Shown here: in pieces, positions 5,847-29,160 of the stretch
Layout: the number at the start of each line of letters is the position of its first letter
Position numbering within the stretch: the first letter of the stretch is position 1
Assembly: GCA_946500295.1 (NCBI GenBank)
Contig: CAMMVF010000014.1
Coordinates: forward strand, 959-64,958
DNA: 64,000 bases
DNA from: an uncultured Clostridia bacterium
Lineage (GTDB): Bacteria; Bacillota; Clostridia; Oscillospirales; Acutalibacteraceae
Reading direction: 5' to 3'
Notes under the pieces: generated by a model
What the model saw: only the letters and a program-made list of their open reading frames with translations
Databases searched by the model: none
Told to the model about the DNA's origin: nothing
Translations under genes and position numbers: made by a program

Positions 5847-5898
5847 GGTATTAAAAACCGCATAGAATAAGGCATAATTTGAAACCGAGAATAAAAAG

Positions 5899-5935: not shown

Positions 5936-5937
5936 TT

Positions 5938-7374: not shown

Positions 7375-7514
7375 AAACTCACCTCTCGAATTATTATAAC
7401 TAAACCAACAGAAAATATCAAGAATTATTAAAGATTTGTCACTTTTAAAAGGCATATTTCGCAATATTAAGCGAACTAATATCAAATTAAAGAGAAATTT
7501 TCACTTTACCCCCC

Positions 7515-7574
7515 TTGACAATTTATGATATGTGGCTTATACTTGTTTTAGCACTTAACGATATCGAGTGCCAA
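7515..7574 (+). promoter_or_regulatory. Sigma-A promoter followed by CIRCE-like (HrcA) operator
   Basis: TTGACA 7515-7520, 17 bp, TATACT 7538-7543; TTAGCACTT-N9-GAGTGCCAA at 7548-7574 versus consensus TTAGCACTC-N9-GAGTGCTAA (2 mismatches). Confidence 0.75.
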
Positions 7575-7619
7575 TATGCATCCGGAGGCATATTGTCTAT
7601 AGAAAGGAGATAGTCAATC

Positions 7620-7739
7620 ATGGCCAAAACCAAGAGTAGCAAGACTGGTAAACAGGATAAAAAAATTGTCCCAGTCAAGCCTTATAAAAGGTCTGATGGA
7701 ACAACAGTTAAGGGGCACAGACGTTCAACCCCTAACTAA
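7620..7739 (+). CDS. 39-aa basic small protein (not in ORF track)
   Basis: GAAAGGAG RBS; MAKTKSSKTGKQDKKIVPVKPYKRSDGTTVKGHRRSTPN. Confidence 0.75.
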   Translation: MAKTKSSKTGKQDKKIVPVKPYKRSDGTTVKGHRRSTPN

Positions 7740-7837
7740 AATTTTCATAAGAAAGAATCAAAGTTAATGATGAACCTATGTACTCCTATTGTAGAACAAC
7801 TTTATGATACCACATTATCTTTGTAACTTCAACCGAC

Positions 7838-7874
7838 AAGTTTGTAACAATTTATAGGTTATTGTTACAAACTT
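7838..7874. promoter_or_regulatory. Perfect 14-bp inverted repeat before the yfbU RBS
   Basis: aagtttgtaacaat-N9-attgttacaaactt. Confidence 0.6.
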
Positions 7875-7887
7875 AAAAAGGAGTCAT

Positions 7888-8412
7888 ATGATAACAGATA
7901 CAGAAAAATTAATACTTTTTAATCAGTACGAGATTCTAAAATTTCTAAATCCAGATGAAACTGATTTCTACGAGCAGAATCAAAAAGTGCTTGAATACGG
8001 AAGTGAAAGTGATATTGAAGAATTGTCATCTTTTTTGATTGGAACATCAGAAGAAGTTAAAAAAGAAACTTTTGATATTTTACAAATGTTTCGAGATTTA
8101 GAAGATGCGTATGAAAAATTCTTTAATTCAACTTCTGAATATAAGTATAGTGCGAAATTTAGGGGATTTGATGGAAATGAAGAACCAGAATATTATTGTT
8201 ATTGCAAACATTTGATAATTGATGAAGATAGATATTCAGAATTTAAAGGCAGAGAACTAAATAGTCATTTTCCAGTGATAAACAGATATCGAAAAATGTT
8301 GAATTGTTACAATATCACAAATGAAAAACGAATCGGCAATTTCTATGAAAATCCAATGACTTTAAAAGAATTTGAATACATAATTCAAGGAGAAAGTACT
8401 GAAGAGCAGTAA
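7888..8412 (+). CDS. YfbU (UPF0304) family protein
   Basis: EKLILFNQYEIL, TFDILQMFRDL, FRGFDGNEE, LNSHFPVINRYRKML match the YfbU pattern; AAGGAG RBS. Confidence 0.7.
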   Translation: MITDTEKLILFNQYEILKFLNPDETDFYEQNQKVLEYGSESDIEELSSFLIGTSEEVKKETFDILQMFRDLEDAYEKFFNSTSEYKYSAKFRGFDGNEEPEYYCYCKHLIIDEDRYSEFKGRELNSHFPVINRYRKMLNCYNITNEKRIGNFYENPMTLKEFEYIIQGESTEEQ

Positions 8413-8574
8413 TGAATGTCATTTCTTGAAACTGCTATTAGTACCTTAATAATAGCAGTTTCAGAAATGTAGTTATGTCCTGCAAATATATGCTATGGAT
8501 TGTACTGGTTAAAAAAGACGATTATTAGAGTATGAAGCAACTAATTAATAAAATGTTACGGGAGGTATTATAAA

Positions 8575-9498
8575 ATGATAATACGCAAAAATAGAATAAG
8601 AAGTGAAAGTTACCTTAATGAGTTTAAGAAGGGTTCAAATCTTACAATTAAAGTTAATAATGTATTGAACAGTCAAACTAAAATAGAAAAATTTGGATTT
8701 AAGCTTGATGATGTGGATGGCACAACTATCTTGCCTTCTGTATTCAATTCATATTCAAGAAAAAATGCAGAACAGTTCTATACAATAGATAAAACATTGC
8801 CTAAAGAAAAATATACACAAACAATCTACTGGACAAGAACCGAGTGGGCTGGTAGAGGAGAAACTCGTGAAGTTACTGAGTTTACTGATATTGTGCGTGA
8901 ACGTTATCACAGAGATTATCATTTACCTTATTCAGTAGAGTTTACTTTGTCAAGAACAGAATCTGAAAACTCTATTGTATCGCAACAAATAAAGTATGTT
9001 GATGATAATATAAAAAAGACAATCAATACTATAAACTTAGTACTAAGTTTATTTGGCGAATGCGAAATTATCTCTGATGAAGAACCTAGCTATAGTACAC
9101 CAGCAAAAGTAGTGCATGTTAATTGGGATATTTTACCCAAAGGTAAATATCCTTGGACAAAGGTGAAAAAATCAATAGAGAGCATTTCGAAAAAATATAA
9201 CAATACGCAAAAAGAAATGATGTTGAGAAATTGTGAAGAAATAAATAAATTATCTCCTGACTTTGTAGCGTATGGTCGTGCAGGATTTAGAGGATATGCA
9301 GTTTTTGGATTTACTGATAAGAATTTGTATATTCTTGAAAGTATGTTTCCAAATAATGCTACTTATATCTTTGAAAAAGACTGGGAAGAATTATCTATGC
9401 TTTCAAAAGGTGAAATTCTGAATCAAAGTTTGCATAAAGCAAGAATAATTCATACTGCAAAATGGAATGAAAAATTCGAACAAATAATGGGGAAATAA
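8575..9498 (+). CDS. Hypothetical protein (307 aa), candidate defence effector
   Basis: GGGAGG RBS; C-terminal GRAGFRGYAVFGF...ILES...NATYIF...W..LS.LSK.EIL...RIIH..W; no family recognised. Confidence 0.8.
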   Translation: MIIRKNRIRSESYLNEFKKGSNLTIKVNNVLNSQTKIEKFGFKLDDVDGTTILPSVFNSYSRKNAEQFYTIDKTLPKEKYTQTIYWTRTEWAGRGETREVTEFTDIVRERYHRDYHLPYSVEFTLSRTESENSIVSQQIKYVDDNIKKTINTINLVLSLFGECEIISDEEPSYSTPAKVVHVNWDILPKGKYPWTKVKKSIESISKKYNNTQKEMMLRNCEEINKLSPDFVAYGRAGFRGYAVFGFTDKNLYILESMFPNNATYIFEKDWEELSMLSKGEILNQSLHKARIIHTAKWNEKFEQIMGK

Positions 9499-9525
9499 TA
9501 TTTATGTGTAATTGCTAATTATTTA

Positions 9526-9577
9526 GTAGCTCATAAAATTTTGTGTAAAAATCGGTAGCCCATAAATTTTTGTGTAA
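9526..9577 (+). repeat. Tandem 23-24 bp duplication resembling an IS256-family terminal sequence
   Basis: gtagctcataaaattttgtgtaaa and gtagcccataaattttgtgtaaa; no transposase nearby. Confidence 0.35.
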
Positions 9578-9931
9578 ATAATAATCCTTCAAGAAACAAC
9601 AAAACATCGGATTGAGGAGCAAATCAGGAGGATTGATTTGCTCTTTGTCATACTTTTTTCTATCTGCACGATGTTTTTTTTTGCGTGCCTTGCGTAAAAA
9701 TCATCACGCAGTCAAGAAATTCTATTTTGAGCATAATTAATGGAATTCCCTGTTCTCACAGACTATTTATCTCTAGTTTTAAATTATAGCCTAGTTTTGA
9801 TATTTATGTTAGCATACTTTAGAAATTAAGAAGAAATATCTATTTTAATCTCTATATTGATTTAGCATTAACAAGAGAATTCAAAAGTTCTTGTATGAAA
9901 TGGATTAATGCAGTAATAATTATTTAATTGT

Positions 9932-11545
9932 TTACCACCAGCTGTATCTTGATTTTTTAAGCTTTTTTGATTCTTCATCCTTTGAATGCTCTCTTTCTCC
10001 AAGTAAGTCATCATTAAGCTTTACAGTGGGATCATACCAATCAGCCTTATTTTTAGCCCATTCTATCCATTTCTTGTCTTCATCAGTTAAGTTTGGTTTT
10101 GAAGAAACGGCTTCAATATACTTACGTATTTTACAGGCAACTGCAAAATCTTCTGCTTCATTAACCAACGCGATTGTTCTATCAATTTCATTATCCCGTC
10201 TTTGTCTTAATTCTTCTTCTTTGTGCCTTTTTTCTTCACGACGTCTCTCTTCTTCCTCACGCTTTTTTCGCTCAACTTTTATTATTTCTGATTTTTCATA
10301 TAAATCAATCAGAATATTCCCGAGTTGATTCTCAATTAATGAGGTATTGGTGTCTTTATAATATTTTCCTTCAAATACACAGAGCTTGATCTTTCCGTTA
10401 AAAATGTAGTCCCAACTTCTGATTTGTGGTTTAGATGCCCATTTGTATTTCTGCTTTTCCTTTTCGTATTTCTCAAGTTCTCTCAATTCTTCTTTTGTTT
10501 TTACATGAACGATTTTACTCTCGCTTTCAATGACCTTAAAGGTTACGGTTTCACCCCTGATTTCAAGCGACAGATCATCGTTAGTTTTTCCGCCTAATGA
10601 CTCTACACATTTGAATAGTGTATCAATCAAACAATGCACTCTGGGTAGACTTTCATCGGAAATATCATAATAAAGTGGAGGTCCCCCTTTTGGAATAGAA
10701 TAATATCTATCTCTCTTGCGTGAGGCAGAAATATCACGCTTATGATCCTTTTTCCATGAATTTATTTTAGCCTTATTAGCTTTTAATACAGGATGCAGAA
10801 TCGTAGATTCATCAGATAAATTGAATATAATTTTCTTAGCAGCTGAAATTACTTTTTGCTTTTCATCGTCAGATAAAAAGTCAAGTATTGCTTTATTAGG
10901 TGAATCGTCAATAACAGTGTCAGTACTTCTCAAACCTGTTTTTGTTGTAACATCATCAGAAGGCGGCAATGGTATTTTGGGGACATGGTGACCTGTTTCA
11001 ATTTTGCGCCAGTATCCTGCAGGAGGTTTTGGAATATTTAATGATTTACAGATTTTGTGTATCATTACATCAGAAACCCCATATTTTTTTGCTACCTTCG
11101 TTATGGGTTCATTCCATATTTCCTCATAAAGGGTATTTCTGTCATATGTATTGATTCCATTTTCTGTGTTAGTTTTTATACCGTATTCTTCTGCAAGTAT
11201 GGATTTTTGCTTTTCAGTAGAAACAGTTGTTTGTTCCACTTCTAAAGGTTTCAGTGTTTTTTGTTGAGCTTTCTTTTGAACAGTTACAGGCTTACTTCTA
11301 TCAGTTACCGGCAAAAGTATTTCTGTGATTTCAGATTCAGGTAACGGTGTTTTCTCAACCTTTTTCCCAACAGAAAGACTTGCCCAATACGAGTTTGAGG
11401 GAAGTGGAATGTTATATTTTTCACATGACTCCTTAAACTTTTGATATGGTACATCATATTTTTTCGCTGTTCGTGAGGTAGAGTTTAGCCATACTTCATC
11501 ATATATTTCCTGCCTTGAAAAAGCAGTCATTTTATATTTTGCCAA
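9932..11545 (-). CDS. Hypothetical protein with duplicated HTH-like module and C-terminal coiled coil
   Basis: GGGAGG RBS before TTG 11545; repeats SRQEIYDEVW...AKKYDV...CEKYNIPLPSNSYW and DRNTLYEEIW...AKKYGV...CKSLNIPKPPAGYW. Confidence 0.8.
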   Translation of the reverse strand: MAKYKMTAFSRQEIYDEVWLNSTSRTAKKYDVPYQKFKESCEKYNIPLPSNSYWASLSVGKKVEKTPLPESEITEILLPVTDRSKPVTVQKKAQQKTLKPLEVEQTTVSTEKQKSILAEEYGIKTNTENGINTYDRNTLYEEIWNEPITKVAKKYGVSDVMIHKICKSLNIPKPPAGYWRKIETGHHVPKIPLPPSDDVTTKTGLRSTDTVIDDSPNKAILDFLSDDEKQKVISAAKKIIFNLSDESTILHPVLKANKAKINSWKKDHKRDISASRKRDRYYSIPKGGPPLYYDISDESLPRVHCLIDTLFKCVESLGGKTNDDLSLEIRGETVTFKVIESESKIVHVKTKEELRELEKYEKEKQKYKWASKPQIRSWDYIFNGKIKLCVFEGKYYKDTNTSLIENQLGNILIDLYEKSEIIKVERKKREEEERRREEKRHKEEELRQRRDNEIDRTIALVNEAEDFAVACKIRKYIEAVSSKPNLTDEDKKWIEWAKNKADWYDPTVKLNDDLLGEREHSKDEESKKLKKSRYSWW

Positions 11546-11658
11546 GATAATAACCTCCCTTCGTAAATTAATTAACGATTCTTCTATCAAGATTTTTGTT
11601 GCTTGAATTTGTTTTATTTCATTTTCATATATTATTTGTGATTGTTTCACCTCCCTAA

Positions 11659-11982
11659 TTATTCGTCGCCACGCAATAAAAAACTTAAATCGCTTTTCAT
11701 TTCAGTAAATTCTTTAATGATATTCTCAAGATTTTGTTCAATTCCTTGAACCTGAACTTCATTGATTTTACCGTATTTATAGGCAATTAATCTTTCGGGA
11801 ATAATATTATAGCTCCAACTATCTGTATAGCTGTCTTCATTTTTTATAGCAAAACCGATAGGCAGTTTTTCATATCTCATTCCTGTTCTGACAGCTATAA
11901 CAGATATGCCGAGATAATCTGCTGCTATCTGACAAGTAACTTTCTTCATATTCCTAATTTTATCATCAGTATACTTGTTCAA
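11659..11982 (-). CDS. Small HTH (excisionase-like) DNA-binding protein
   Basis: VTCQIAADYLGISVIAVRTGM...LPIGFA...YNIIPERL; GAGGTG RBS. Confidence 0.65.
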   Translation of the reverse strand: MNKYTDDKIRNMKKVTCQIAADYLGISVIAVRTGMRYEKLPIGFAIKNEDSYTDSWSYNIIPERLIAYKYGKINEVQVQGIEQNLENIIKEFTEMKSDLSFLLRGDE

Positions 11983-12100
11983 AACTATTCACCTCTTTTC
12001 AGATAATTTATTACAATATAATATTACCATTGATTTTTGTTTCAATCAATATAAAAAAGAAAGAAGCCCGATGAATTGAGCTTCTTGTTTTTATATAGAA

Positions 12101-12540
12101 TTAATCATATATTTTAATTTGATTTTCTGTATCCGGAATATCTTTATATTTTTCAATTAACTTTTTAATTTCGTATAATAACTGTTGTTTTTGCTCGGTT
12201 TCGATATTTATGATTTCATAAAAGCTGAAGCTAATCAATCTTAACATGAATCCGCTATCCCAATCTAAATTTTTCTTAAACTGGTTAAGATATTCGGTCT
12301 TTTTCTAAATGTCAATTTCAGAAAGCGAGGAATCACGGTCTTTTTCGCTTTTAGCATTCATTTCGAGATAGTGTTTTTCTTCAAATGAAAAAAAGTGATG
12401 ACAATTTAGATACTCTATAAAATATGTGATTATTTCTTTATATTCTTCGTTTGATATTTCAGTTGAATGACCATATTTACTATATTAATGTTATATACAA
12501 TGGATAACATGGTCACATAATTAGTGCATATGGCAATCCA
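12101..12540 (-). pseudogene. Possible decayed ORF
   Basis: Protein-like reading (SNEEYKEIITYFIEYL...IDI*KKTEYLNQF...) broken by an internal TAG and a frameshift. Confidence 0.35.
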
Positions 12541-12698
12541 AAGTATAATTGACCAGAGAAGGCTCGTTAATGTAACAGTGCCAAATTTTCTCCATAAAAT
12601 TATGTCGAATAAACTTCATACTATAGTTAAAAAAGCAGATTCATTAAATATTTAAAATAAAAAGTGTTCGCTGGAAGTTTTTGGCGAACACTTTTTTC

Positions 12699-13703
12699 TT
12701 AAACTAAGGTTTCTTTTATTCTTTTGGCTATTATATATGCCAAATCAACAGGAACTGCATTACCTATCATTTTATATCCGTAATCAACATCAGTATAAAT
12801 AAATTCAAAATCATCAGGAAATCCTTGAAGTCTTGCGCATTCTCTCACAGTAAGTCGGCGATACAAGTTCTCTTTCCCGGGAACGAATATTCTCTTGTTT
12901 TTTTCGACAAAAAGCATTTTAGGAGCTTGCGGATGTAGTTGACACTGCCTGCCGCTCGCCTGAACGGTAAATCCTTGCTCATCCCAGGAACGAACACGAT
13001 TACGACTCATAAAGATAGTTGAATAAGCCCCGACAAAAAACTCGTGATTGAGTATAGGTAATCGTCCGTTTGTTTTGTTTCTGGATAATGCAGGTATTGC
13101 AGAAGTGGCTAAATCACCAATGGCTTGTTTTAGTGTGGTTTTCTGATATCTGTATGGTGTGGTTTGTTCAGGAAATCTGAAATCAATATGCAAATCTTTC
13201 CTGAATCCAATATAAAACACTCTTTTTCTGTCTTGTGGGACACCATAATCAGCTGCATTCACAAGATTTATAGTTACATCATATCCACAAGATTCACATT
13301 GTGAAATAATGTTTTTCACAGCCTCAGAATGTCGATTAGCCAGCATACCGGAAACATTTTCAGCTAGGAAAAATTTAGGCTGTTTACTTTTTAAAATTCT
13401 GATATAGTCATAAAAAAGTTTTCCACGGTCATCGTTAATTCCTCTTAAAGCTCCGGCTTCGCTCCAGCTTTGGCACGGTGGTCCCCCGATAATACCGTCA
13501 ATATTGTCAGGAAAATCAGATTCTGTTATGCTCCTGATGTCTCCTTTAATTAGCTTTGCCTTATGATTCTTTTCATATGTTTCCCATATTCCCTTATCAA
13601 ATTCATTAGCAATAACTATTTCGTAACCAGCTTTTTCAAAACCTAAGTCTAATCCACCTGCACCGGAGAACAAACTAATCAATTTCAATATAATCATCTC
13701 CAT
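12699..13703 (-). CDS. C5-cytosine DNA methyltransferase, M.HaeIII-like (probably GGCC)
   Basis: FSGAGG, GGPPCQ, ENV, QDRKRVF; target-recognition region [31 protein letters not shown] closely matches M.HaeIII as recalled. Confidence 0.9.
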
Positions 13704-13745
13704 TCAGTTTGCATTTTAACTCTTTAAAATATAAATGCAAGTGAA

Positions 13746-14636
13746 TTATTCAAAAACTATGCCATAATCTGTGATATTTGTTACATTAACATCCTCATCC
13801 GTATTAATGCCAAGTTTTTTAAGCACGGAAATAAGGTTTTCTGCTACAGCATTACCCTTGGTTATGAGAGGTTTATCAAAAACTAGATTGCAATCAAGCC
13901 TTCCGTCGGTTACAAACCAATCAACATATACCGATAAAGGTCTATCGCCATCCCACTTCCCTTTTGCTGATCTGTAATTTAATGCTTTGCAGGCAAAGTA
14001 AACTTGCGGATATTTATCTACATATTCCTCAATAGTATATAGATTGCTGAAAATATCTTCTGCAGATGAAATGTTATCATGAAATAAAACGCAATTAGCT
14101 ATACCTGAGTTTTCTATAATGTTTCCATTTACAAAAGCATTTTTCTTATCATCAGGAAGATTAGTGCCGGCATAAACATCAATAACTTGTTCGTGTGAAA
14201 GAGTTATTATATCTGAAAAATCTCCGTTCGATTTATTCAGTAGTTCAAACTTCCAACCTAATGTGAATGCACCTTTATCTGTTCGGCCACTTCTCTTTTT
14301 ATATATCAAGGGCTTATTTAAAAAAGCTGATTTTATTCTTAAAGTTGAACTTTCAATAATCTTTTTCCAGTTATCACCAAATAATAATTGCGCACGCTCA
14401 CTGTTCATTTTATTTTCAATGAAATCTGCATTCTCTTTTTTGTAGGAAATTTTAAATTCCTCAACACCATTTTCACATCTTGCTTTTACATAAATATCTG
14501 TTTTAGGTTCACCCTTGTAACAAGTAGGTTTTCCAGATTCAAGTACAGTATAAGGTGTGTTCTTATATGTAAAAGCTGTTCCTACGGAAAGTATTTCTTT
14601 GATTTTTCTTTCCTCTATTCCAAAACTTTTTGCCAT
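13746..14636 (-). CDS. Putative type II restriction endonuclease (PD-(D/E)xK)
   Basis: EPKTDIY...FKISYK motif; directly upstream of and co-oriented with the MTase. Confidence 0.7.
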   Translation of the reverse strand: MAKSFGIEERKIKEILSVGTAFTYKNTPYTVLESGKPTCYKGEPKTDIYVKARCENGVEEFKISYKKENADFIENKMNSERAQLLFGDNWKKIIESSTLRIKSAFLNKPLIYKKRSGRTDKGAFTLGWKFELLNKSNGDFSDIITLSHEQVIDVYAGTNLPDDKKNAFVNGNIIENSGIANCVLFHDNISSAEDIFSNLYTIEEYVDKYPQVYFACKALNYRSAKGKWDGDRPLSVYVDWFVTDGRLDCNLVFDKPLITKGNAVAENLISVLKKLGINTDEDVNVTNITDYGIVFE

Positions 14637-17096: not shown

Positions 17097-17257
17097 AGTA
17101 TCAACTCCGTTTATATTATATCACTTTGCAAATGAAATCACAAGTGTATAGGAAAGTAAATTGTGTTGTCACGTACTTTTACGGTTTTTTGAAAATTTTT
17201 GGCATTTATATATTGAGAGCAAAAAGCTTTCAATATTTTATGGAAGGAGTTGTTATA

Positions 17258-18340
17258 GTGAGTAACAACAAAAAGCTTACTGTCATTGACGGTGAAACAT
17301 TAATGGATATGCGAATTAATCCGATAAGCTTTTGCATCGACTCGTTGCTTCCGCAGGGTGTATCTCTGCTCTGCGGTGCTCCTAAGATAGGTAAGTCGTG
17401 GTTAGTACTTGACTGGTGTGTTCGCATAGCCAAAGGAGAGGAGGTGTGGAATTTTAAAACCGCGAAAGGAACTACCTTGTATCTTTGTCTTGAGGATACC
17501 CTGAGCAGAATTCAAGAAAGGCTGAATGAGATTACAGATGAAGTTCCGAGCAATGTATTCTTTGCAACATCATCGTGTTCGATGTCGGACGGACTCGCAG
17601 AACAGATTGAAAGTTTTATCGCAGAGCATAACGATACGGTTCTGGTTGTCATAGATACATTTCAAATGATACGCACCAGAAATAAAGATACTACTTACGC
17701 AAATGATTATCAGGAAATTGAGGAACTGAAAAGATTAGCGGAGAAGCTGAAAATTTCTCTTCTGCTTGTACATCATCTGCGAAAGCAGGGTGACAATGAT
17801 CCTCTGAATAAAATCTCAGGCACAACAGGAATCAGCGGTGCGGTTGATACAACATTTATTCTTGATAAAAGTAAACGCAGTCAGAACAGCGCAACAATGA
17901 TTTGCACGGGCAGGGATATTGAATACAGAGAGTTGGAACTGAGCTTTTCAAAAGACAATCATATATGGGATTTAGTTTCGGACAGTGTAGAAAGTCCTGA
18001 AATACTTTTGCCGGAAGAAATGAATTCGTTAATTGAATTTATGAAACAAAAGATTGTTTTCAAGGGGACAAACTCTGAGTTTACAGAAGAATTTAATTCT
18101 TTCTGCCGTAAGGAAATCTCTGCAAAAGCGTTAAAACAGATGATGAATAAATGGCGTTACGAATTAGAGAGTAATAACATTTACTTTAACTCATACAGAA
18201 GTAACGGAAAAAGGTTTGTAAATGTTCACTATCTGCCCGATAGTGACTCAAGTGCCGTAAGTGACGTAAATATTATTAGTGCCAATACTTGCGTTCCTTT
18301 CGTCACTTGCGACCCTGAAAAGCCGTGTCAGCCTACATGA
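17258..18340 (+). CDS. AAA_25 / RepA-like helicase
   Basis: GAPKIGKS Walker A, LYLCLED, VVIDT, VHHLRK, ISGT; GGAAGGAG RBS before GTG 17258. Confidence 0.85.
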   Translation: MSNNKKLTVIDGETLMDMRINPISFCIDSLLPQGVSLLCGAPKIGKSWLVLDWCVRIAKGEEVWNFKTAKGTTLYLCLEDTLSRIQERLNEITDEVPSNVFFATSSCSMSDGLAEQIESFIAEHNDTVLVVIDTFQMIRTRNKDTTYANDYQEIEELKRLAEKLKISLLLVHHLRKQGDNDPLNKISGTTGISGAVDTTFILDKSKRSQNSATMICTGRDIEYRELELSFSKDNHIWDLVSDSVESPEILLPEEMNSLIEFMKQKIVFKGTNSEFTEEFNSFCRKEISAKALKQMMNKWRYELESNNIYFNSYRSNGKRFVNVHYLPDSDSSAVSDVNIISANTCVPFVTCDPEKPCQPT

Positions 18341-20618: not shown

Positions 20619-20714
20619 TATCTGGATATTATAGAAAAGTTGTGATATGTTGTGGTTGCACCGAGGTGGTGTGACCACAACATTCATATGATAAAAACGG
20701 AGAGGAGAATGATT

Positions 20715-22322
20715 ATGAAGGTGTGGTTGTATTACAGACTGTCAAGAGATGAAGATGCTGAGCTCAATTCTCTTAACAATCAGCGTAACATTTTAGTAGA
20801 ATACGCAAACGCTAATAATCACGAAATCGTGGGCGAGTCCTTCGATGATAATGTAAGCGGTATGCACTTCAATCGTGAGGGTATCAGCAAAATCTATGAA
20901 CAGGTCGAGAATAAGGCAATTGAAGCAATCATTGTAAAAGACTTATCCCGACTAGGCAGACACAGAACACAGACTGCTATGTTCATAGATTATCTTCGTG
21001 AACACGATGTCAGAGTGCTTTCTGTTACAGAAAACATTGACACAAGCAATGAAGATGATGATCTGATGATTGGTTTCAAGGGAATTTTCAATGATATGTA
21101 CGCCCGTGATATTTCAAAGAAAATCCGTGCAGGCTACAAGCAGAAACAGAAAAACGGCATTGTGATTACAGTACCGCTTGGATATTTTAAGGATAAGAAT
21201 ACAAATGAAATTGTAGTTGTTGAGGAAGAAGCAGAGATTGTCAGAAAGATATTTGACCTCTACCTATCAGGCTACGGTTTAAAAGCAATAGCCAAAAAGC
21301 TGAATGATGAGGGCATAAAATCACCGCAGTATTATCAGAACAAAATGTATAACAAGAAACTTCCGAGTAACAAGCCTGAAATTACGGGTAGGTACTTATG
21401 GGTGAACACAACGGTAAAACGGATTTTGCAGAATGAGTTTTACATAGGAACCGTAACCTGTCACAAGACCTATACCAGTAAAATTAATCATATTAGGAAG
21501 GCTTTGCCCGAGGATGAACAATTTAAACACGAAAATTTTGCACCTGCCATTATCTCAAAGGAGAAATGGGAACAGGTGCAATTTTTATTATCTTCAAAGC
21601 ATAACAATAATGTCCGAGCAAGCTCAAGTAATCCTTGCCACCGCTACACAGGACTCATAGAATGCGGTGACTGCGGTTGCACATTCGTATGTAAAAAGCG
21701 TAAGTGGAAAGATAAACCCGAACGCATCGAATACAACTGCAACGGCTATCATCGCTATGGCAAGGAACATTGCACGGCACACAGGATTGATGAAGAATAT
21801 TTAGATAAGATGATTTATGACGAGCTTATGTCTATCAAAGATGAAGCACTTGCAAACTACAAATCAATAGAATCGGATGTCAAGAAATGGATGAGCAACA
21901 AGGGGACAGTTACTAATAAACTGAAACAGCTCAATACAAGCCTTGAACAGCGCAAATCTGACCAAAAAGAAATCCTGCTTGAGAGAATCAGGGATAGGGA
22001 ACACGCAGATATCTACACAGAAATGCTTGAAAAATGTGAATCGGATATTCAAAAGCTTGAGAATGAAATCAAGTCCATTCAGGATTACAACTCAACTATC
22101 AAAAAGCGCAAAGCTGAAATGAAAGACAGCGTTGAAATCATTGAAGAAATTATCAAGGAAGGAGCAATCAGTGACGCAAACCTCAGATTGCTTGTAGATA
22201 AAATAATAATCTTTGAAAAAGATAAAAAACTGAGTATCAAAATCAAGTTAAATGCAAAATTTCAACGACATAAGGATTGTTATAATGATAATGGAATAGT
22301 TTCAGAAAAGATATTCATATAA
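20715..22322 (+). CDS. Large serine recombinase (integrase)
   Basis: YYRLSRDED catalytic Ser, DDNVSG, KDLSRLGR, recombinase domain, CGDCG..YNC..HC Zn ribbon, coiled coil; GAGGAG RBS. Confidence 0.92.
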   Translation: MKVWLYYRLSRDEDAELNSLNNQRNILVEYANANNHEIVGESFDDNVSGMHFNREGISKIYEQVENKAIEAIIVKDLSRLGRHRTQTAMFIDYLREHDVRVLSVTENIDTSNEDDDLMIGFKGIFNDMYARDISKKIRAGYKQKQKNGIVITVPLGYFKDKNTNEIVVVEEEAEIVRKIFDLYLSGYGLKAIAKKLNDEGIKSPQYYQNKMYNKKLPSNKPEITGRYLWVNTTVKRILQNEFYIGTVTCHKTYTSKINHIRKALPEDEQFKHENFAPAIISKEKWEQVQFLLSSKHNNNVRASSSNPCHRYTGLIECGDCGCTFVCKKRKWKDKPERIEYNCNGYHRYGKEHCTAHRIDEEYLDKMIYDELMSIKDEALANYKSIESDVKKWMSNKGTVTNKLKQLNTSLEQRKSDQKEILLERIRDREHADIYTEMLEKCESDIQKLENEIKSIQDYNSTIKKRKAEMKDSVEIIEEIIKEGAISDANLRLLVDKIIIFEKDKKLSIKIKLNAKFQRHKDCYNDNGIVSEKIFI

Positions 22323-22382: not shown

Positions 22383-23084
22383 ATGATAAAAGTTGCATTT
22401 TGTGATGATGAAACTAAAATTTTAGAGGATTTATCTGTAAAGATAAAGAAAGAATTTGAAAAGATTAATTGTGAAATTGATTTATATACAACAGAAAACT
22501 CAATCGGGCTTCTTGAATATCTGAAAAGTTGTCCTGTTGATATTCTGTTTCTGGATATTGATATGCCGACAATCAGCGGTATGGATATTGCAGAAGCTCT
22601 GCTCAACAGCGAAATAAAAACACTCATTGTCTTTGTTACAGGTCAGGATGCCCTTGTGTATAAATCCTTTAAATATCATCCCTTCGGATTTATAAGAAAG
22701 ACATATTTTGATGAAGAAATTACGGGAGTTGTAAAAGGCTTGATTGAGGAAATACAAAAAAGCTCTGATACATTCTTCTTCAAAACTAACGATAGCTTTA
22801 ACAGAATCAAGCTTAAGGATATTCTGTATTTTGAATCCGAGTCAAATTATCTTAATCTGCATACTGCAAATACTGTTTACAAATTCAGAAGTACCCTTTC
22901 AGCAATTGAAAAAGAGCTTTCAGCAAAGGGTTTTATCCGCACTCATAAAGGATTTCTTGTGAATCAGGAGCATATCTTTTCAGTCAAATCCGAGAATATT
23001 GTTCTCAGCAGCAATGTCGTCCTACCAATCGGCAGAACAAACAGAGATGTAATAAAAGCTCGCATTATGAGGTATATGAGATGA
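22383..23084 (+). CDS. LytTR-family response regulator
   Basis: FCDDE, FLDIDMP..SG, VFVT, HPFGFIRK, FIRTHKGFLVN. Confidence 0.9.
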   Translation: MIKVAFCDDETKILEDLSVKIKKEFEKINCEIDLYTTENSIGLLEYLKSCPVDILFLDIDMPTISGMDIAEALLNSEIKTLIVFVTGQDALVYKSFKYHPFGFIRKTYFDEEITGVVKGLIEEIQKSSDTFFFKTNDSFNRIKLKDILYFESESNYLNLHTANTVYKFRSTLSAIEKELSAKGFIRTHKGFLVNQEHIFSVKSENIVLSSNVVLPIGRTNRDVIKARIMRYMR

Positions 23085-23806
23085 TCGGAAAATATAAAAA
23101 GCTCAAGCAGGATTTTGAAAATCTTGAAAAGGAATATTCAAGAGAGGTTGCAAAAAATCTCGACTTGCAATACGAATACGACAACCTGAAAGCTGATTAT
23201 ACAAACGAATCGACTCAGCGTGCGGAAATTGAGAGGCTTCACGAAAACACACGAAGGCTCAAGCACGATATGAAAAATCATATTATGGTGGCTGTATCCT
23301 ATCTTAACAACGGAGAGATTGAACAGGCTAAGAATTATCTTTCAGATGTGCTTGATAATCTGAACAAAACCTATTCCTACATTCAGACCGGTAATTCTGT
23401 TATGAATTATATTATCAATTCAAAGCTTGAAAAAGCACATAGCAAGGGAATTGGATTTAAGGCAGAAATAGAAAATCTCCCCTTTGAAAAAATGGGAAGT
23501 GTTGATTTTTCTGCATTGCTTTCAAATATACTTGATAATGCCGTTGAGGCAAGTGAAAAGACAACAGATAAGTTTATCTGTGTTGCGATTCTCAAAAAGC
23601 GTGCTTATGATACAATCCTCGTAAAAAACAAGATTGATAACTCCGTGCTTGAAACAAATCCCGAGCTTAAATCAAGTAAAAATAATACAGAACAACACGG
23701 CTACGGTATAAAGCAGATAAAGACAATAGCCGAAAAATATGATGGTATAGTTGACATTTATGAAGAGGACAATATGTTCTGCGTGAATGTGATGATACCT
23801 AGCTGA
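23081..23806 (+). CDS. GHKL histidine kinase (AgrC-like) lacking a membrane sensor domain
   Basis: HDMKNH, NILDNAVEA, HGYGIKQIK; no hydrophobic segment. Confidence 0.85.
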   Translation: MIGKYKKLKQDFENLEKEYSREVAKNLDLQYEYDNLKADYTNESTQRAEIERLHENTRRLKHDMKNHIMVAVSYLNNGEIEQAKNYLSDVLDNLNKTYSYIQTGNSVMNYIINSKLEKAHSKGIGFKAEIENLPFEKMGSVDFSALLSNILDNAVEASEKTTDKFICVAILKKRAYDTILVKNKIDNSVLETNPELKSSKNNTEQHGYGIKQIKTIAEKYDGIVDIYEEDNMFCVNVMIPS

Positions 23807-23809
23807 ATC

Positions 23810-23840
23810 AGACTGTTTCAAATGAAGCAGTCTTTTTTAT
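23810..23840 (+). terminator. Rho-independent terminator
   Basis: agactgtttc-aaat-gaagcagtct plus T-tract. Confidence 0.6.
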
Positions 23841-24008
23841 TTAACAGGAAACTGCGTATAAGTAAGCTGTCAGGAAAAACAAAAAAGCCAATTCCTTTTT
23901 CAAAATTTGTGTCAAGGCTCTTGCTTTTTGTCACAGTTCAGAAGCAGTTTATCCCAAATGGATTGTAAATTATCAAGTATATGTTTATTATTAATTCAGG
24001 TGAAGAAA

Positions 24009-24965
24009 ATGATTATAGCCAAAAACTTAAGCAAGGAATTTCACAATAACATCAAAGTGGTGAATAATCTTTCGTTTCATATTAACAAGGGTGAAACAGT
24101 CGGGCTAATAGGCGCAAACGGTGCAGGCAAAACAACACTTATAAAGCTTATTTCAGGCTTGTTAATACCCGACAGTGGCTTTGTCAGAATTTTTGAGGAT
24201 AACCCGCTTGCAAGGAAAGCTAAAAACGGGCCGTTTATGGGTGTAGTGTCAGGTCAGAGGCCCTCAGGAACCTATGATAACGGCAAGGGTGCAAACACCG
24301 CGACCTTGCAGGAGGATTTAACGGTTGAACTGAATATGGAGCTTGTAAAGGCAATTTACAGAATTCCCGATGACAGATATAATAAAAAGCTTTCTAAGCT
24401 TACAGACGCTCTTAGATTAAACTCTTTTATGAAATACCGTGTTGACCAGCTTTCATTAGGTCAGCGTATGCGTGCAGAAATAGCTGTTGTACTGCTTTAT
24501 GAGCCTGAACTTCTTATACTTGACGAACCGTTTATCGGGGTTGACCTGATAGCCAAGGAATCAATAAGGCAAATTCTTCAAAAAATGTCCAAGGATAAGA
24601 ACACCACAATAATTCTTACCACACACAATGTAGAAGAAATTGAGAAAATCTGTGAAAGGGTAATCTTAATAGACAAAGGCAGTATGGTTTTTAACGGAAG
24701 CTTTGACCGTATAAAGTATTCTCACGCAAGTATCAATTCATTAAGTGCCGAGCTTACGGATAAAATTCCCGATATGCAAGATTTGCCTGTGACTAAATAC
24801 ACGATTGAAAATAAAAAAATTACCCTTTGGTACGACAGTAAGGTTATCAGCACCAAAGATCTAACCGCATACATTTTATCGCAGTGCAAGGTTAAGGATT
24901 TGCTGATAAGAAAACCTACTGTTGAAGAAATTATCAGAAATATATATGAGGAGGACTCAGAGTGA
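24009..24965 (+). CDS. ABC transporter ATP-binding protein
   Basis: GANGAGKT, LSLGQ, LILDEP. Confidence 0.9.
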   Translation: MIIAKNLSKEFHNNIKVVNNLSFHINKGETVGLIGANGAGKTTLIKLISGLLIPDSGFVRIFEDNPLARKAKNGPFMGVVSGQRPSGTYDNGKGANTATLQEDLTVELNMELVKAIYRIPDDRYNKKLSKLTDALRLNSFMKYRVDQLSLGQRMRAEIAVVLLYEPELLILDEPFIGVDLIAKESIRQILQKMSKDKNTTIILTTHNVEEIEKICERVILIDKGSMVFNGSFDRIKYSHASINSLSAELTDKIPDMQDLPVTKYTIENKKITLWYDSKVISTKDLTAYILSQCKVKDLLIRKPTVEEIIRNIYEEDSE

Positions 24966-25963
24966 GTAAAACTATAATTGATGTACAGAACATAAGCAAA
25001 ACCTTCAAAATCACAAAGAGAAAAACAGGATTTAAAGGTGCGTTAGCAAACATATTTCATCCTGAGCACGAATACAAGAAAGCTGTAAACGACATCAACT
25101 TTAATATAAAAGAGGGTGAGATGGTAGGCTTTATCGGACCTAACGGAGCCGGAAAGTCAACTACCGTCAAAATGCTTTCAGGTATTCTGTATCCTGACAG
25201 CGGAAATATTAATATCGCAGGATATATTCCCCACAAACAGCGTAAGGAATATGTTGCCAATATCGGTGTAATGTTCGGTCAGAAATCGCAGATTTCATGG
25301 GATTTATCACCGCTTGACAGCTACGAGGTTATCAAGCATATCTATAAAATTCCCGATAAGAAATATAAAGAAAATATTGAACGCTTTACAGAGCTTCTTG
25401 ATATGCAGAAATTCATCAATCAGCCTGTTCGCCAACTATCATTAGGTCAGCGAATGAGGGCAGATATTGCGGCGGCGCTTCTTCACTCGCCTAAAATAGT
25501 TTTCTTTGATGAGCCCACAATCGGAATTGATGTTGTGGGTAAGGAAAAAATCCGCAGTTTTATAAAAACTCTTAATAAGACTGATAACATCACTATGATT
25601 TTTACAACTCACGATATGCAGGATATTGAAAAGACCTGTGAGCGCCTGATAATTATTGATGACGGAAAAAAGCTATATGACGGAAGCTTTGACGCTATAA
25701 AAAGCAATTATGTTTCATCACGAATTATAGAAGCAGAGTTTGAACAGCTGCCTGAAAAAATTGATATTCCGTATGTTACTGTCAGTGATGTTGATAAAAA
25801 CAGAATGAAAAAGGTCATCACATTTGATACCAGCAAAACAAGCATAAATTCGTTGATGAGTACCCTGCTCAACAATTACAGCATCAAGGATATTTCAGTA
25901 AAAGAGCCTGAAATTGATGCGATAATCAGTGATATTTATCAGGGCAAAATCATTGTACATTGA
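24962..25963 (+). CDS. ABC transporter ATP-binding protein
   Basis: GPNGAGKS, LSLGQ, FFDEPT. Confidence 0.9.
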   Translation: MSKTIIDVQNISKTFKITKRKTGFKGALANIFHPEHEYKKAVNDINFNIKEGEMVGFIGPNGAGKSTTVKMLSGILYPDSGNINIAGYIPHKQRKEYVANIGVMFGQKSQISWDLSPLDSYEVIKHIYKIPDKKYKENIERFTELLDMQKFINQPVRQLSLGQRMRADIAAALLHSPKIVFFDEPTIGIDVVGKEKIRSFIKTLNKTDNITMIFTTHDMQDIEKTCERLIIIDDGKKLYDGSFDAIKSNYVSSRIIEAEFEQLPEKIDIPYVTVSDVDKNRMKKVITFDTSKTSINSLMSTLLNNYSIKDISVKEPEIDAIISDIYQGKIIVH

Positions 25964-25978
25964 GTACGGAGGTGCAAA

Positions 25979-26767
25979 ATGAGTACTTACATACAATTTG
26001 CCGCCATTAAATTCAGGAATAATATGGCTTACCGTTTTGAGTACATAATGGGGATTCTGAATACTGTTCTGAATTTTTTGGTGTATTGGTGTATATACAA
26101 GGCTTTGTATGGCGGAGCAAATGAGATTGACGGAATTACCTTTTCAATGGTAACTACAAACTTTATAATTTCGCTCGGTTTGACAAATGCTTTTTCAAAA
26201 AATGAAATGTTTTTACAGGATAAAATCAAACAGGGAACAATAGCAAACGAGCTTCTTAAGCCTGTGAATTTTAAATTCAGAATGCTGTTTGAGGATTTGG
26301 GTGACGGCTTTTTTAAAGTGGTTTTCAATTTTCTGCCTGCTGTGATAATTGCAATGCTTTTTACTGAAATGATGCCGCCTGCCAGAATTTTTGGCTTTGT
26401 TCTCTGCCTCGTCAGTGCAGTGCTGGGATATATTGTATTGTGGTATATAAGCTTTATAGTTCAGACCTTGGCTTTCTGGCTGTTTAATGTCTGGGGATTG
26501 ATTACAATAAAAAATGTAATAGTAAATATTTTCTCGGGTGCTTTACTTCCGCTTTGGTTTATGCCACAACCTGTTCTGAATATTATTAAGTTCACACCGT
26601 TTGATTCTATTTACTTCACACCTGTTCAGCTGTATCTCGGACAACTGCAGGGTTATGAAATACTGTTGAATTTTGGTAGGCAGGTTTTGTGGATAGCAAT
26701 ACTTTATTTTATCGGCGAGCTTTTGTGGAATAAAGGAATCAAAAGACTTATAGTGCAGGGAGGATAA
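25979..26767 (+). CDS. ABC-2 family permease
   Basis: Multiple TM segments, GTIANELLKP, FSGALLPLWFMP. Confidence 0.85.
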   Translation: MSTYIQFAAIKFRNNMAYRFEYIMGILNTVLNFLVYWCIYKALYGGANEIDGITFSMVTTNFIISLGLTNAFSKNEMFLQDKIKQGTIANELLKPVNFKFRMLFEDLGDGFFKVVFNFLPAVIIAMLFTEMMPPARIFGFVLCLVSAVLGYIVLWYISFIVQTLAFWLFNVWGLITIKNVIVNIFSGALLPLWFMPQPVLNIIKFTPFDSIYFTPVQLYLGQLQGYEILLNFGRQVLWIAILYFIGELLWNKGIKRLIVQGG

Positions 26768-26770
26768 GTT

Positions 26771-27577
26771 ATGAAAGATATAGTTTCTCTGTTTTTTGCT
26801 TATGCAAAATCAGGTATAAAAACACGCTTTCAATATAAGCTTGACTCCGTAGTTTCGTCTTTTGCCGTGTTTTTCAGAGAAGCGGCAGGAATTATTGCAA
26901 TGTATTTTGCTTTGCTTAAATTTGATACAATCAATAACTGGAATATCAACGAGCTTATGTTTCTGTTCAGCCTGATTTTTATTACATATGGAATTTTTAT
27001 TGTCTTTTTTATGGCTTTGCGGGACTTTTCCGACTGGATAAAGCACGGTGATATAGACAGAGTAATGGTAAGACCTCGTGGAATACTCACTCAACTTGTG
27101 CTGTGCGGTGCAGACTGGCTTGCAGCACTCGGTCACGGAACATTGGGCATTACACTTTTTATTTTGTCAGCCAATAATGTGGGTGTGGAATGGAACGCTG
27201 CGACTATTCTGTACTATGTTATTTCAATTGCAAGCGGTGTCCTTATACAAGGTGCAGTTTTTCTGTTTTTCTCAGCAATCAGCATTTATTTTATAGAAAC
27301 ACAGAGCTTAAAAGAAATTATGTACTGGAATCTGAGAAAATTTGCCGGTTATCCGATTAGCATTTATAATAAGTTCATACAGTCACTGCTGATATTTGTA
27401 GTGCCGTTTGCATTTGTGAATTACTTTCCGGCACAGTTCTTGCTGCGCAAGCCTGATATGTCGACGTATCCCGAATGGTTTATGTATATTTCACCGTTTG
27501 TAGGAATCATACTTTATATCATCGCTTACTTTTTCTGGAAGTTCAGTATGAGGTATTATAAAAGTACCGGTAATTAA
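26771..27577 (+). CDS. ABC-2 family permease
   Basis: GDIDRVMVRP, FAGYPISIY, VVPFAFVNYFP. Confidence 0.85.
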   Translation: MKDIVSLFFAYAKSGIKTRFQYKLDSVVSSFAVFFREAAGIIAMYFALLKFDTINNWNINELMFLFSLIFITYGIFIVFFMALRDFSDWIKHGDIDRVMVRPRGILTQLVLCGADWLAALGHGTLGITLFILSANNVGVEWNAATILYYVISIASGVLIQGAVFLFFSAISIYFIETQSLKEIMYWNLRKFAGYPISIYNKFIQSLLIFVVPFAFVNYFPAQFLLRKPDMSTYPEWFMYISPFVGIILYIIAYFFWKFSMRYYKSTGN

Positions 27578-27598
27578 GGTTTATTGCAAAATATAAAA

Positions 27599-27711
27599 TG
27601 GCAGACGCATAACATTAGTAAGTTTCAATTTAGCGATTATAGCTAAATTGAAGTGTGATGATTTGTACAATATAAACGACAAAATCATCACCTTATGTTA
27701 TGCGTCTGCCA
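27599..27711. other. 113-bp three-way-junction inverted-repeat structure
   Basis: 17-bp outer stem 27599-27615/27695-27711; inner hairpins 27624-27652 (11 bp) and 27655-27691 (10 bp). Confidence 0.75.
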
Positions 27712-27734
27712 ACTTAATTTTTGCTCAAAAACAA

Positions 27735-27762
27735 GAAAAAGCCCGATTAAATCGAGCTTTTC
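27735..27762 (-). terminator. Terminator downstream of tRNA-Leu
   Basis: aagcccgat-taa-atcgagctt hairpin with a minus-strand T-tract. Confidence 0.65.
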
Positions 27763-27766
27763 AGGG

Positions 27767-27851
27767 TGGTGCGGGCGACAGGACTTGAACCTGCACATCG
27801 GTTGACACTAGAACCTAAATCTAGCGCGTCTGCCAATTCCGCCACGCCCGC
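27767..27851 (-). tRNA. trnL: tRNA-Leu(TAG), intact, CCA encoded
   Basis: GCGGGCGTGGCGGAATTGGCAGACGCGCTAGATTTAGGTTCTAG...GGTTCAAGTCCTGTCGCCCGCACCA; anticodon TAG, long variable arm. Confidence 0.97.
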
Positions 27852-27895
27852 ACGTGTGTATTTCAACAAGTTAACCTTGCGAAAATCAAAATATT

Positions 27896-27958
27896 AAATT
27901 GTTTCACCGAGGTAGCGTGACCTAAATCTAGCGCGTCTGCCAATTCCGCCACGCCCGC
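27896..27958. mobile_element. attR: element P arm joined to the tRNA-Leu 5' half
   Basis: 27920-27958 is identical to 27813-27851; preceded by aaattgtttcaccgaggtagcgtg. Confidence 0.85.
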
Positions 27959-27990
27959 GAATATGTTTAATTAGAAAAATCACAAATATT

Positions 27991-28019
27991 ATTATACAAA
28001 AAAATTCATGATTTGTCAA
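27991..28019 (-). promoter_or_regulatory. Consensus tRNA promoter
   Basis: Minus-strand TTGACA (28019-28014), 17 bp, TATAAT (27996-27991). Confidence 0.85.
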
Positions 28020-28041
28020 TCACTAATTCAATATATAAATT

Positions 28042-28740
28042 TTATTTGTCAGATTTCCAAGGCCTTGATTTCCCGAGCCAACCTTTACTGTGCCAGTAGT
28101 TCTTGTCCGCTTCATTAAAACCGTTCTTTTGAGCAATATGCATAACGAAAAAGAACACTCTTGTAATCAATCCCACTCGAACTTTACCGTTGTGTTTCTT
28201 TATTTTTCTTGCCACTCGAGATGTTTTCTTATCAATCTTATTTTTAACTTTATCACTAAGATGAGAATATCTCGTTTCAAAAACAGCGAGACCTATTTTA
28301 TATCTTTTGGTAATTCCCCAAAAGAATAAGCTGTGTGACATATCCTTGTTAGCGGATCTCATACCTGCGCCTGCTGCTGTGGATACGCATACAGCTTGTT
28401 TTGAGAACATTGTTTCTTCAGGACGATGTACCATCCACATATAGCCGTAATGGTCAAGAAGCGCTTTCATTGCCCCGGTGCTGTGAAAAACATAAACAGG
28501 ACTCGCGAGAATAATAACATCAGCTTCAAACATAGCATTTGTAATAGGCTTTAGCTTGGTATAATGGGGGCACATTTTTTCAGATTTTGTAAAACAGTTT
28601 GTACATCCTATGCAAAATTCTCCAAAATCCATTGGAAGAAAAAACTCAGTAATTTCGCCGCCGATTTTGTTTGCCAACATTCTAGCTGTATGATATGTAG
28701 AGCCTTTATGATTCTGACCATTAATAATAACAATTTTCAT
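28042..28740 (-). CDS. Flavodoxin family / NADPH-dependent FMN reductase-like protein
   Basis: MKIVIING..HKGST, CIGCTNC...CPH, ADVIILASPVY; GGAGG RBS. Confidence 0.85.
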   Translation of the reverse strand: MKIVIINGQNHKGSTYHTARMLANKIGGEITEFFLPMDFGEFCIGCTNCFTKSEKMCPHYTKLKPITNAMFEADVIILASPVYVFHSTGAMKALLDHYGYMWMVHRPEETMFSKQAVCVSTAAGAGMRSANKDMSHSLFFWGITKRYKIGLAVFETRYSHLSDKVKNKIDKKTSRVARKIKKHNGKVRVGLITRVFFFVMHIAQKNGFNEADKNYWHSKGWLGKSRPWKSDK

Positions 28741-28849
28741 AAAATCCTCCTGGAACATTATGTTATTTACAACTATATTATATAAACTATATTATCGCAA
28801 TATCTAAAAATAAAGCTCGGCTTAAAAACCGAACCCAAATACAATATTC

Positions 28850-28911
28850 AATTGTTTCACCGAGGTAGCGTAACCTAAATCCAGCATATCTGCCAATTCC
28901 GCCACGCTCGC
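28850..28911. mobile_element. Degenerate second attR-like site (P arm plus decayed tRNA 5' half)
   Basis: 56/62 identical to 27897-27958, with 5 of the 6 changes in the tRNA-derived part. Confidence 0.8.
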
Positions 28912-29160
28912 AAATTTATAAAATGCAAAATGCAGAGTGCATAATGCATAATTATTTATTTAAATTTGAGGTTTTGCAAATTTTTATCAGAATACTGATA
29001 ATTTCATTTATATCTGACTGCAAACTTCAAATTGTAAACTATCAATGTAATTTGTTTTATGAAGTAATTTAATCCAAGCCAAACCGGGGTGACATGCTAG
29101 TTCAGTGCAAATAAGCTTATTACGTCATAAATATAAGGACTTTTACGTATATATGCATTA

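Follow-up and report, generated by a model that had tools for sequence, protein, structure and literature searches.

Classical genomic islands that use a tRNA gene as attachment site through a tyrosine integrase recombine in the 3' part of the gene or symmetrically in its anticodon stem-loop, with a partial copy restoring the tRNA, and the scars that they leave are 3' fragments downstream of the tRNA gene. In accretion, an incoming element uses the attL or attR of a resident, and remnants end up flanked by attL- or attR-type repeats. The stretch of DNA analyzed here, 64,000 nt from an uncultured member of the Acutalibacteraceae (Oscillospirales) and hereafter the window (positions 959 to 64,958 of contig CAMMVF010000014.1, assembly GCA_946500295.1), contains a 21.9-kb integrative mobilizable element (IME), here termed E2, inserted in a tRNA-Leu(UAG) gene, and the locus around it very likely records, layer upon layer, a series of site-specific integrations by mobilizable elements of a single family. 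A related behavior is the tRNA-dependent lysogeny of actinobacteriophages, which, as the abstract and Discussion of that work present it, integrate into a tRNA gene without rebuilding the gene (Guerrero-Bustamante & Hatfull, 2024; PMC10865867). In the same parts of that source, the phages integrate by means of lambda-like tyrosine integrases, with arm-type sites and a ~10-bp core, and prophage Lj965 of Lactobacillus johnsonii is cited as a related case. IME_Rho_tet, a large-serine-recombinase IME of gut Clostridia, inserts into small MAFF2-type open reading frames (ORFs), and the main text of its report, with 0 occurrences of "tRNA", describes no tRNA target or replacement gene (PMC12904643). 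No literature linking large serine recombinases with a tRNA-Leu attB was found.

E2 spans positions 5990 to 27918 and is a complete IME that stands out both by gene content and by low GC content (28–39% within these limits vs. 41–51% outside). Its large serine recombinase (556 aa; 20652–22322, plus strand) combines Resolvase (PF00239), Recombinase (PF07508) and Zn_ribbon_recom (PF13408) domains with the catalytic-serine motif YYRLSRDE, and is accompanied by a relaxase (PF03432; 18874–20340) and an AAA_25 protein (17126–18340). No VirB4- or type IV coupling protein-type domain was found among the 20 E2 ORFs scanned with Pfam, three of which were without any Pfam match, and no phage structural genes were found in the scan of E2 genes and domains. 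E2 thus has its own integration module and a relaxase, without a complete type IV secretion apparatus, as is characteristic of an IME. At its left junction, attL, the B arm is the 3' half of the tRNA-Leu(UAG) gene (5938–5989, minus strand), identical at 52/52 positions to 27767–27818 and preceded by the terminator hairpin of the split gene (5906–5937), and the P arm, tggtgacgacaccttggtgaaa, forms the left end of the element (5990–6011, plus strand) as an imperfect inverted repeat of the P' arm (17/22 positions). At the right junction, attR1 (27898–27958, plus strand), the P' arm (27898–27918) is joined to the 5' half of the tRNA gene (27919–27958), in which 27920–27958 is identical to the intact tRNA at 39/39 positions and 27919 is the junction base (g vs. 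a in the tRNA), a base that differs also among the arms of different elements.

The attP reconstructed from these junctions, tttcaccgaggtagcgtgacct-AA-tggtgacgacaccttggtgaaa, is a 46-bp imperfect palindrome with 17/22 arm symmetry and a non-palindromic central AA, and the core that it has in common with attB is ACCTAA. This is the form expected for large serine recombinases, namely an imperfect palindrome of ~40–50 bp with a non-palindromic central dinucleotide and few bases in common with attB. The central AA corresponds to U33-U34 of the tRNA, which places the crossover at the anticodon. The E2 recombinase family would cross over at U33-U34 of the tRNA-Leu(UAG) anticodon loop and thereby destroy the gene, as one part of an overall explanation that is considered highly probable. 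Neither junction rebuilds the tRNA, attL having the 3' half only and attR the 5' half only, and in this the integration of E2, leaving no functional tRNA at either junction, resembles tRNA-dependent lysogeny as outlined in the abstract and Discussion of PMC10865867. The resemblance extends to the intact replacement tRNA that E2 carries, for which complementation is predicted. This tRNA-Leu(UAG) (27767–27851, minus strand, with a terminator at 27736–27762) is the single tRNA detected by ARAGORN in the window and the sole Leu-UAG tRNA of the draft assembly (2.18 Mb, 45 contigs, 33 tRNAs). Joining the attL and attR1 halves, as excision of E2 would, gives a tRNA identical to the replacement copy. 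The host's only assembled Leu-UAG tRNA is thus element-derived and sits on E2, a predicted live element. Between this tRNA and the P' arm lies a 46-nt tail (27852–27897, minus strand), kept in near-identical E2 copies and in the short-tail scars of other genomes, which may be read as a compact promoter-like spacer, with -35 and -10 elements assigned by eye.

The association between recombinase and target holds beyond the window. Recombinases 86–97% identical to that of E2 have a tRNA-Leu(TAG) downstream on the opposite strand in 8 of 11 loci, a ninth (L183) being N-masked at that point, and homologues of 60–70% identity, which form a sister clade, have a tRNA-Leu(CAG) downstream (loci L172 and L185–L216). 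As a genomic association, this points to a strong link between recombinase clade and tRNA isoacceptor.

The initial annotation of the window had noticed a second copy of the arm and tRNA 5' half downstream of attR1, and comparison bears it out: 27897–27958 and 28850–28911 are identical at 56/62 positions, with a start-to-start distance of 953 bp. This outer scar, attR2 (28851–28911, plus strand), consists of a P' arm (28851–28871) identical to that of attR1 at 21/21 positions and a decayed tRNA 5' half (28872–28911). The 21-nt arm ATTGTTTCACCGAGGTAGCGT occurs in exactly two copies in the window (27898 and 28851) against 0 expected from 100 shuffles, and elsewhere in the 2.18-Mb genome only as the imperfect inverted P arm at attL (5990–6011). 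All six differences between attR2 and attR1 (28872, 28882, 28886–28888 and 28908) are transitions, located in the tRNA part or at the junction; the concentration of mutations in the tRNA part that had been pointed out is accurate as a description and is not statistically significant (1/29 vs. 6/40; Fisher p = 0.23). Joined to the 3' half at attL, the 5' half of attR1 gives a perfect tRNA, and that of attR2 a tRNA with an A.C mismatch in its acceptor stem and a disrupted D stem. The earlier observation that the three tRNA 5' ends of the locus have three different upstream flanks is likewise confirmed by sequence comparison. The second half-tRNA copy is a genuine scar of an earlier mobile element of the E2 family.

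The interval between the scars (27959–28850, minus strand) is the stranded tail of that earlier element, here termed E1, as assessed by Pfam matching, promoter and terminator scans, and recurrence in other genomes. Read inward from the outer scar on the minus strand, it contains a terminator (28836–28813), a promoter, an intact FMN_red/flavodoxin-like gene of 238 aa served by that promoter (28042–28758, minus strand; PF03358, E = 1.5e-20) and a 12/12 TTGACA-17-TATAAT consensus promoter (28019 to 27991) pointing at the inner tRNA half, so that the flavodoxin gene and the tRNA promoter are both found where the initial annotation had placed them. When the closest FMN reductase homologues (76–93% amino acid identity) were compared together with their flanks, a tRNA 5' half and P' arm were seen to precede the gene in L133, L135–L138, L156 (the congener G001), G002, and G007. 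Promoter and intact tRNA-Leu(UAG) follow the gene in L133, L136, L137, L156, and G002, and no intact tRNA was found downstream of it in the remaining scar-bearing loci (L135, L138, and G007). The scar-bounded module is hence present in at least eight other genomes, with the order 5' half scar, P' arm, terminator, FMN_red, promoter and tRNA-Leu(UAG), and its recurrence in this form, together with promoter and tRNA, identifies it as the right end, or tail, of an E1 element type. The outer flank of the tail varies, from the native rpiB flank in G001 to an E1-type promoter in G002 and G007 and a further element tail in the window, and these differing outer contexts indicate independent integrations. 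The FMN_red gene is absent from 4 of the 7 congeners (G003–G006), and neither the scar-free native loci in G003 and G006 nor the native locus of G004 has it; gene and promoter are thus not a shared property of the empty locus in the relatives, an outcome that would have spoken for a native origin. Nothing like an element body was seen after the tRNA in L133, L136, and G001, which may show the state proposed for the window locus before the arrival of E2. In the present arrangement, the E1 consensus promoter would read through the inner scar, the P' arm and the 46-nt tail into the E2 tRNA, and the E1 terminator would shield the reductase gene from transcription entering from the outer remnant. 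As a separate observation, in G007:C10 (L225, 2410–2555) the FMN_red tail is followed by an unrelated ORF instead of promoter and tRNA, with an N-terminus that looks, by eye only, like that of an ISL3-type transposase, and the contig stops there.

The sequence beyond the outer scar (28912–29081, minus strand), upstream of the tRNA split by E1, is 87–92% identical to sequence upstream of an intact tRNA in G004, of the same genus, and in G011, of another genus, an identity that far exceeds the ~70% of chromosomal genes. In G004, it belongs to a 438-nt tail with a gene for a 23S-rRNA-IVP four-helix protein; this tail is closed by a P' arm and 5' half scar of its own, beyond which follow the native promoter and then rpiB. 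Given that the G004 counterpart is an element tail with its own scar, the tRNA split by E1 was therefore itself element-borne, belonging to an element termed E0, the tail of which is cut in the window at 29081 with 170 nt surviving. The interpretation of 28912–29077 as the native promoter flank of the tRNA is ruled out, since in G004 the same sequence is a scar-ended tail beside the native promoter and rpiB. The locus is read as holding at least three layers (E0, E1, and E2). The initial annotation had proposed that an older element split the original tRNA and supplied promoter and tRNA to a later E2; the supply of promoter and tRNA and the later entry of E2 are supported by the recurrence of the E1 tail, but the tRNA that was split was not the native chromosomal one.

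Stacks of this kind recur in other genomes. E2 copies with a 94–97% identical recombinase have the same 46-nt tail at their end, followed by differing scars and flanks (one scar and the native promoter in L174, two scars in L180 and three in L179), and the stack therefore belongs to the locus and not to E2. At least two tRNA 5' halves are present in 11 of the 29 other fetched loci that have at least one; L065 has four scars and L105 several, and in the isolate Ruminococcaceae bacterium P7 five scars, differing in their tails, follow one another, in a genome that has a single intact tRNA and neither an additional 3' half nor a close recombinase. In the congener G004, four stacked scars lie at tRNA-Leu(CAG) (L172; G004:C34, 3058–3800), each with a ~130-nt tail and a P' arm of the type ttttacacagaagtggcgtgacctgaacc. 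Stacks with two to five scars are common in the Oscillospirales, and the sister recombinase clade does likewise at tRNA-Leu(CAG). Tails in the family range from 46 to about 1560 nt in length, and no recombinase was found within 2.7–5 kb of the fossil tails in L133, L136, G001, and G004. Element bodies hence appear to vanish, while their tails and attR scars persist.

A further arrangement is seen in G005 (L022, G005:C4, 2721–2860), L176 (13661–13800), and L177 (13263–13400), where an E2-type tRNA module is fused directly to a promoter flank, without P' arm or 5' half scar, and a recombinase of 94–95% identity lies upstream of the fused module in L176 and L177. These fusions indicate that tRNA-half repeats do recombine in the E2 family. 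A deletion between two 5' halves appears to have removed the right att site in all three loci, and the element should as a result be fixed where it is. Independently of these cases, L087 (1080–1230) has an intact tRNA-Leu(UAG) followed ~120 nt downstream by a separate scar comprising only the T arm to the CCA end; in this locus the 3' end of the tRNA seems to be used as well, by another kind of element, presumably of the tyrosine-integrase type.

The att sites and palindromic attP, the association of clade with isoacceptor, the recurrence of the E1 tail and the body-less stacks of other genomes are read from sequence and comparison, and from them an order of events can be inferred. Each element of the family would carry a complete replacement tRNA a short way inside its right end, and this tRNA, being an intact attB, would serve as the integration site of the next family element. 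At the window locus, an E0-type element would have arrived first. An E1-type element would have come next, splitting the E0 tRNA to give attR2 and contributing a tail with terminator, FMN reductase, consensus promoter and tRNA, and the present E2 would have come last, splitting the E1 tRNA to give attL and attR1, both of them pristine. Nesting near the right end of a resident would create direct repeats on the left, formed by duplicate tRNA 3' halves, duplicate P arms and whatever backbone the elements share, with the tail of the resident lying outside them. Homologous recombination between such nesting repeats would remove the older body and one attL, keep a working tRNA and spare the tail; cross-excision between the outer attL and the inner attR is an alternative route for the loss of bodies.

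The fate of the older attL, which had been proposed to lie left of the window or to have been deleted, can be traced in part. The left flank is a decayed prophage (1–5900), and neither a third tRNA 3' half nor a P arm is present in the assembly, even at 4–8 mismatches, so that the suggested search for another 3' half and arm to the left returned nothing there or elsewhere in the assembly. An attL or body farther left is rejected on account of this flank, the lack of a third 3' half in the assembly and the mere 958 bp of contig that remain, and deletion is the part of the proposal that stands.

Several other explanations were considered for the two scars. The region 5990–28871 might be a single composite element, with attR2 as the true target junction and attR1 and the FMN-reductase tail as an internal fossil picked up elsewhere through outer-attR excision, which would reduce the history in this genome to one integration. 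Such excision is possible on mechanistic grounds and would account for the acquisition of cargo by tails, the P' arms of the two scars are identical (21/21, and 28/29 with the upstream bases included), and tail length varies widely within the family (46 to about 1560 nt). Yet the attL 3' half pairs perfectly with attR1, and with attR2 only at the cost of the acceptor-stem mismatch and broken D stem described above; attL and attR1 are pristine, in contrast to the diverged attR2; E2 copies with 94–97% identical recombinases end at the 46-nt tail in different outer contexts; and in other genomes the FMN_red tail and intact tRNA occur without E2. A composite origin is on this evidence improbable. 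The absence of the FMN_red gene from 4 of 7 congeners, and from the native locus of G003, G004, and G006, bears on a different proposal, according to which FMN reductase and promoter are native neighbours of the tRNA-Leu gene and the outer scar arrived by an unrelated rearrangement. The genome is clearly rearranged around the locus, and the closest FMN_red homologue (93% amino acid identity, L132) lies upstream of an intact tRNA without recognisable scar, as this proposal would have it, but a P' arm and 5' half stand directly upstream of FMN_red in eight other genomes, and the proposal is very improbable. Least credible, to the point of being nearly negligible, is a local tandem duplication or ectopic gene conversion that copied the attR junction ~1 kb downstream without a second integration. 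The two direct repeats of ~82 nt, 953 bp apart, are what it would predict, but the junction alone is repeated, the sequence that follows 28925 having no relation to that after 27972; in other genomes the module in between recurs as a scar-bounded element end, and stacks with different tails occur in many of them. A tandem duplication of the copy at 28850 is excluded in particular, since only the ~82-nt junction and not the 953-bp unit is repeated.

Serial integration by one family of elements hence remains much the best account of the locus, and a number of observations weigh against it to some degree. Two nested bodies still in place were seen in no genome examined, the scars being what speaks for nesting, and homologous recombination and cross-excision yield the same product and are indistinguishable by sequence. 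FMN_red identities of 76–86% among congeners also fit the vertical descent of one old event followed by rearrangement. The assembly of 45 contigs has only 33 tRNAs, and contig C14 stops 958 bp to the left of the window; an unassembled attL or second tRNA copy may exist. Lastly, the whole stack lies in an island that is absent from this position in congeners, and it sits beside an AbrB-like gene and not beside rpiB.

The right junction of that island with the conserved chromosome lies at 29082–29160 and is followed by an AbrB/MazE-like gene, spmA, spmB, and gerA, with homology to congeners beginning at ~29150. In G005, the genes beyond the AbrB-like gene match the start of contig C35 of this genome (G000), which makes the stretch between the start of the window's contig and ~29100 an island at this position. 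The decayed prophage on its left is related to phages in G005:C25 and G003:C2; it retains an ORF with a TerL nuclease domain (1674–2972), carries an inserted Fic/DOC gene (3125–4189), and has a portal fragment (4292–4963) fused to a capsid fragment (4657–5613) by a ~2.2-kb deletion relative to those phages. The native tRNA-Leu(UAG) locus of the genus adjoins rpiB (G003, G004, and G001), and no tRNA lies beside rpiB in this genome (C11:~18500) or within ~10 kb of the AbrB/spmAB region in congeners. A simple inversion between the rpiB and AbrB loci was rejected, since neither C11:18505 onward nor the start of C35 contains the missing part of the E0 tail. Downstream of rpiB, C11:18505–18730 is a ~220-nt GC-rich intergenic stretch, structured in appearance and ending in a T-run, and the gene after it is TetR-like by eye. 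A ~60-nt repeat, common to G003:C4, occurs at the ends of C16 and C11, at the starts of C33, C19, and C7, and also at C8:13771–13834, and is probably the mark of a multicopy element at which the assembly breaks.

The remaining genes of E2 include DUF6076 and DUF6809 proteins, a C5 methylase, a LytTR/GHKL two-component pair, ABC transporters, an AAA_21 ATPase and YfbU, and its cargo falls into two blocks (6022–14636 and 22383–27577). A defence-like block comprises the AAA_21 ATPase, YfbU with an uncharacterized 307-aa protein, an uncharacterized 572-aa protein, and the C5 methylase with an adjacent 296-aa ORF. The other block, with a LytTR regulator, a GHKL kinase, two ABC ATPases and two ABC-2 permeases, resembles a bacteriocin-immunity or export module. 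A large compound hairpin (27586–27724) separates the last ABC-2 permease gene from the tRNA terminator; the ~250-bp module of hairpin, terminator and tRNA is ~93% identical in the congener G005, amid unrelated neighbour genes, and the tRNA-proximal part of the hairpin is seen beside the E2-type tRNA also in L105 and L176.

The locus can be set against several described systems. Like classical tRNA islands, the elements use a tRNA gene as attachment site and leave partial tRNA copies that mark old junctions, but the scars are 5' halves upstream of the gene and the whole gene is replaced. As in the accretion of integrative conjugative elements (ICEs) and IMEs with cis-mobilizable elements (CIMEs) of the Streptococcus ICESt1/ICESt3 type (PMC5704250; PMC7563491), successive elements pile up and internal att sites part a live element from cargo-keeping remnants. 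Unlike accretion, the target here is a complete attB, the tRNA, within the resident, and the remnant (27959–28850) has an attR-type scar on either side; a stack of attL sites was not seen, which sets the locus apart from accretion with CIMEs. With IME_Rho_tet and Tn4451/Tn5397-type elements, E2 has in common a backbone of relaxase and serine recombinase, inverted-repeat ends and Lachnospiraceae/Oscillospirales hosts. With respect to tRNA-dependent lysogeny, as characterized in the abstract and Discussion of PMC10865867, E2 differs in being a mobilizable element with large serine recombinase, relaxase and palindromic attP, in another host phylum, and in the distance of the replacement tRNA from attP, which here ranges from 46 nt to about 1.5 kb. 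E2 hence works like tRNA-dependent lysogeny but is not a member of it, being no temperate phage with a tyrosine integrase and arm-type sites. Neither abstract nor Discussion of that report mentions re-integration into an element-borne tRNA or stacks of scars.

The cassettes seen so far in the tails encode FMN reductase, the 23S-IVP four-helix protein, a GIY-YIG/DUF4357 protein and unknowns. A more speculative extension, put forward tentatively and rather doubtful as a whole, is that the upstream side of tRNA-Leu might act as an integrase-less gene-capture platform, in which each cycle of splitting, replacement and body loss would strand one promoter-equipped cassette, passing elements of the family could re-mobilize blocks of cassettes via an outer attR, and the family would drive the turnover and relocation of the host's only tRNA-Leu(UAG), as in the present genome with its empty native locus.

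The strategy of disrupting and replacing a tRNA, which in the parts of PMC10865867 cited here is shown experimentally only for tyrosine-integrase phages of Actinobacteria, would extend to serine-recombinase mobilizable elements, and the elements of this family are widespread in gut and rumen Clostridia. An element that carries its own attB offers itself to nested re-integration, and the ordered stacks of scars and cargo tails that result provide a readable history of element traffic at one locus and explain the build-up of small orphan genes with strong promoters upstream of the tRNA. The predicted integration site suggests a recombinase family with a well-defined and highly conserved natural attB, the anticodon region of tRNA-Leu, and the sister specificities for UAG and CAG offer a natural experiment in target recognition. 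For the host, the sole gene for an isoacceptor can in this manner become mobile-element-derived and move around the chromosome.

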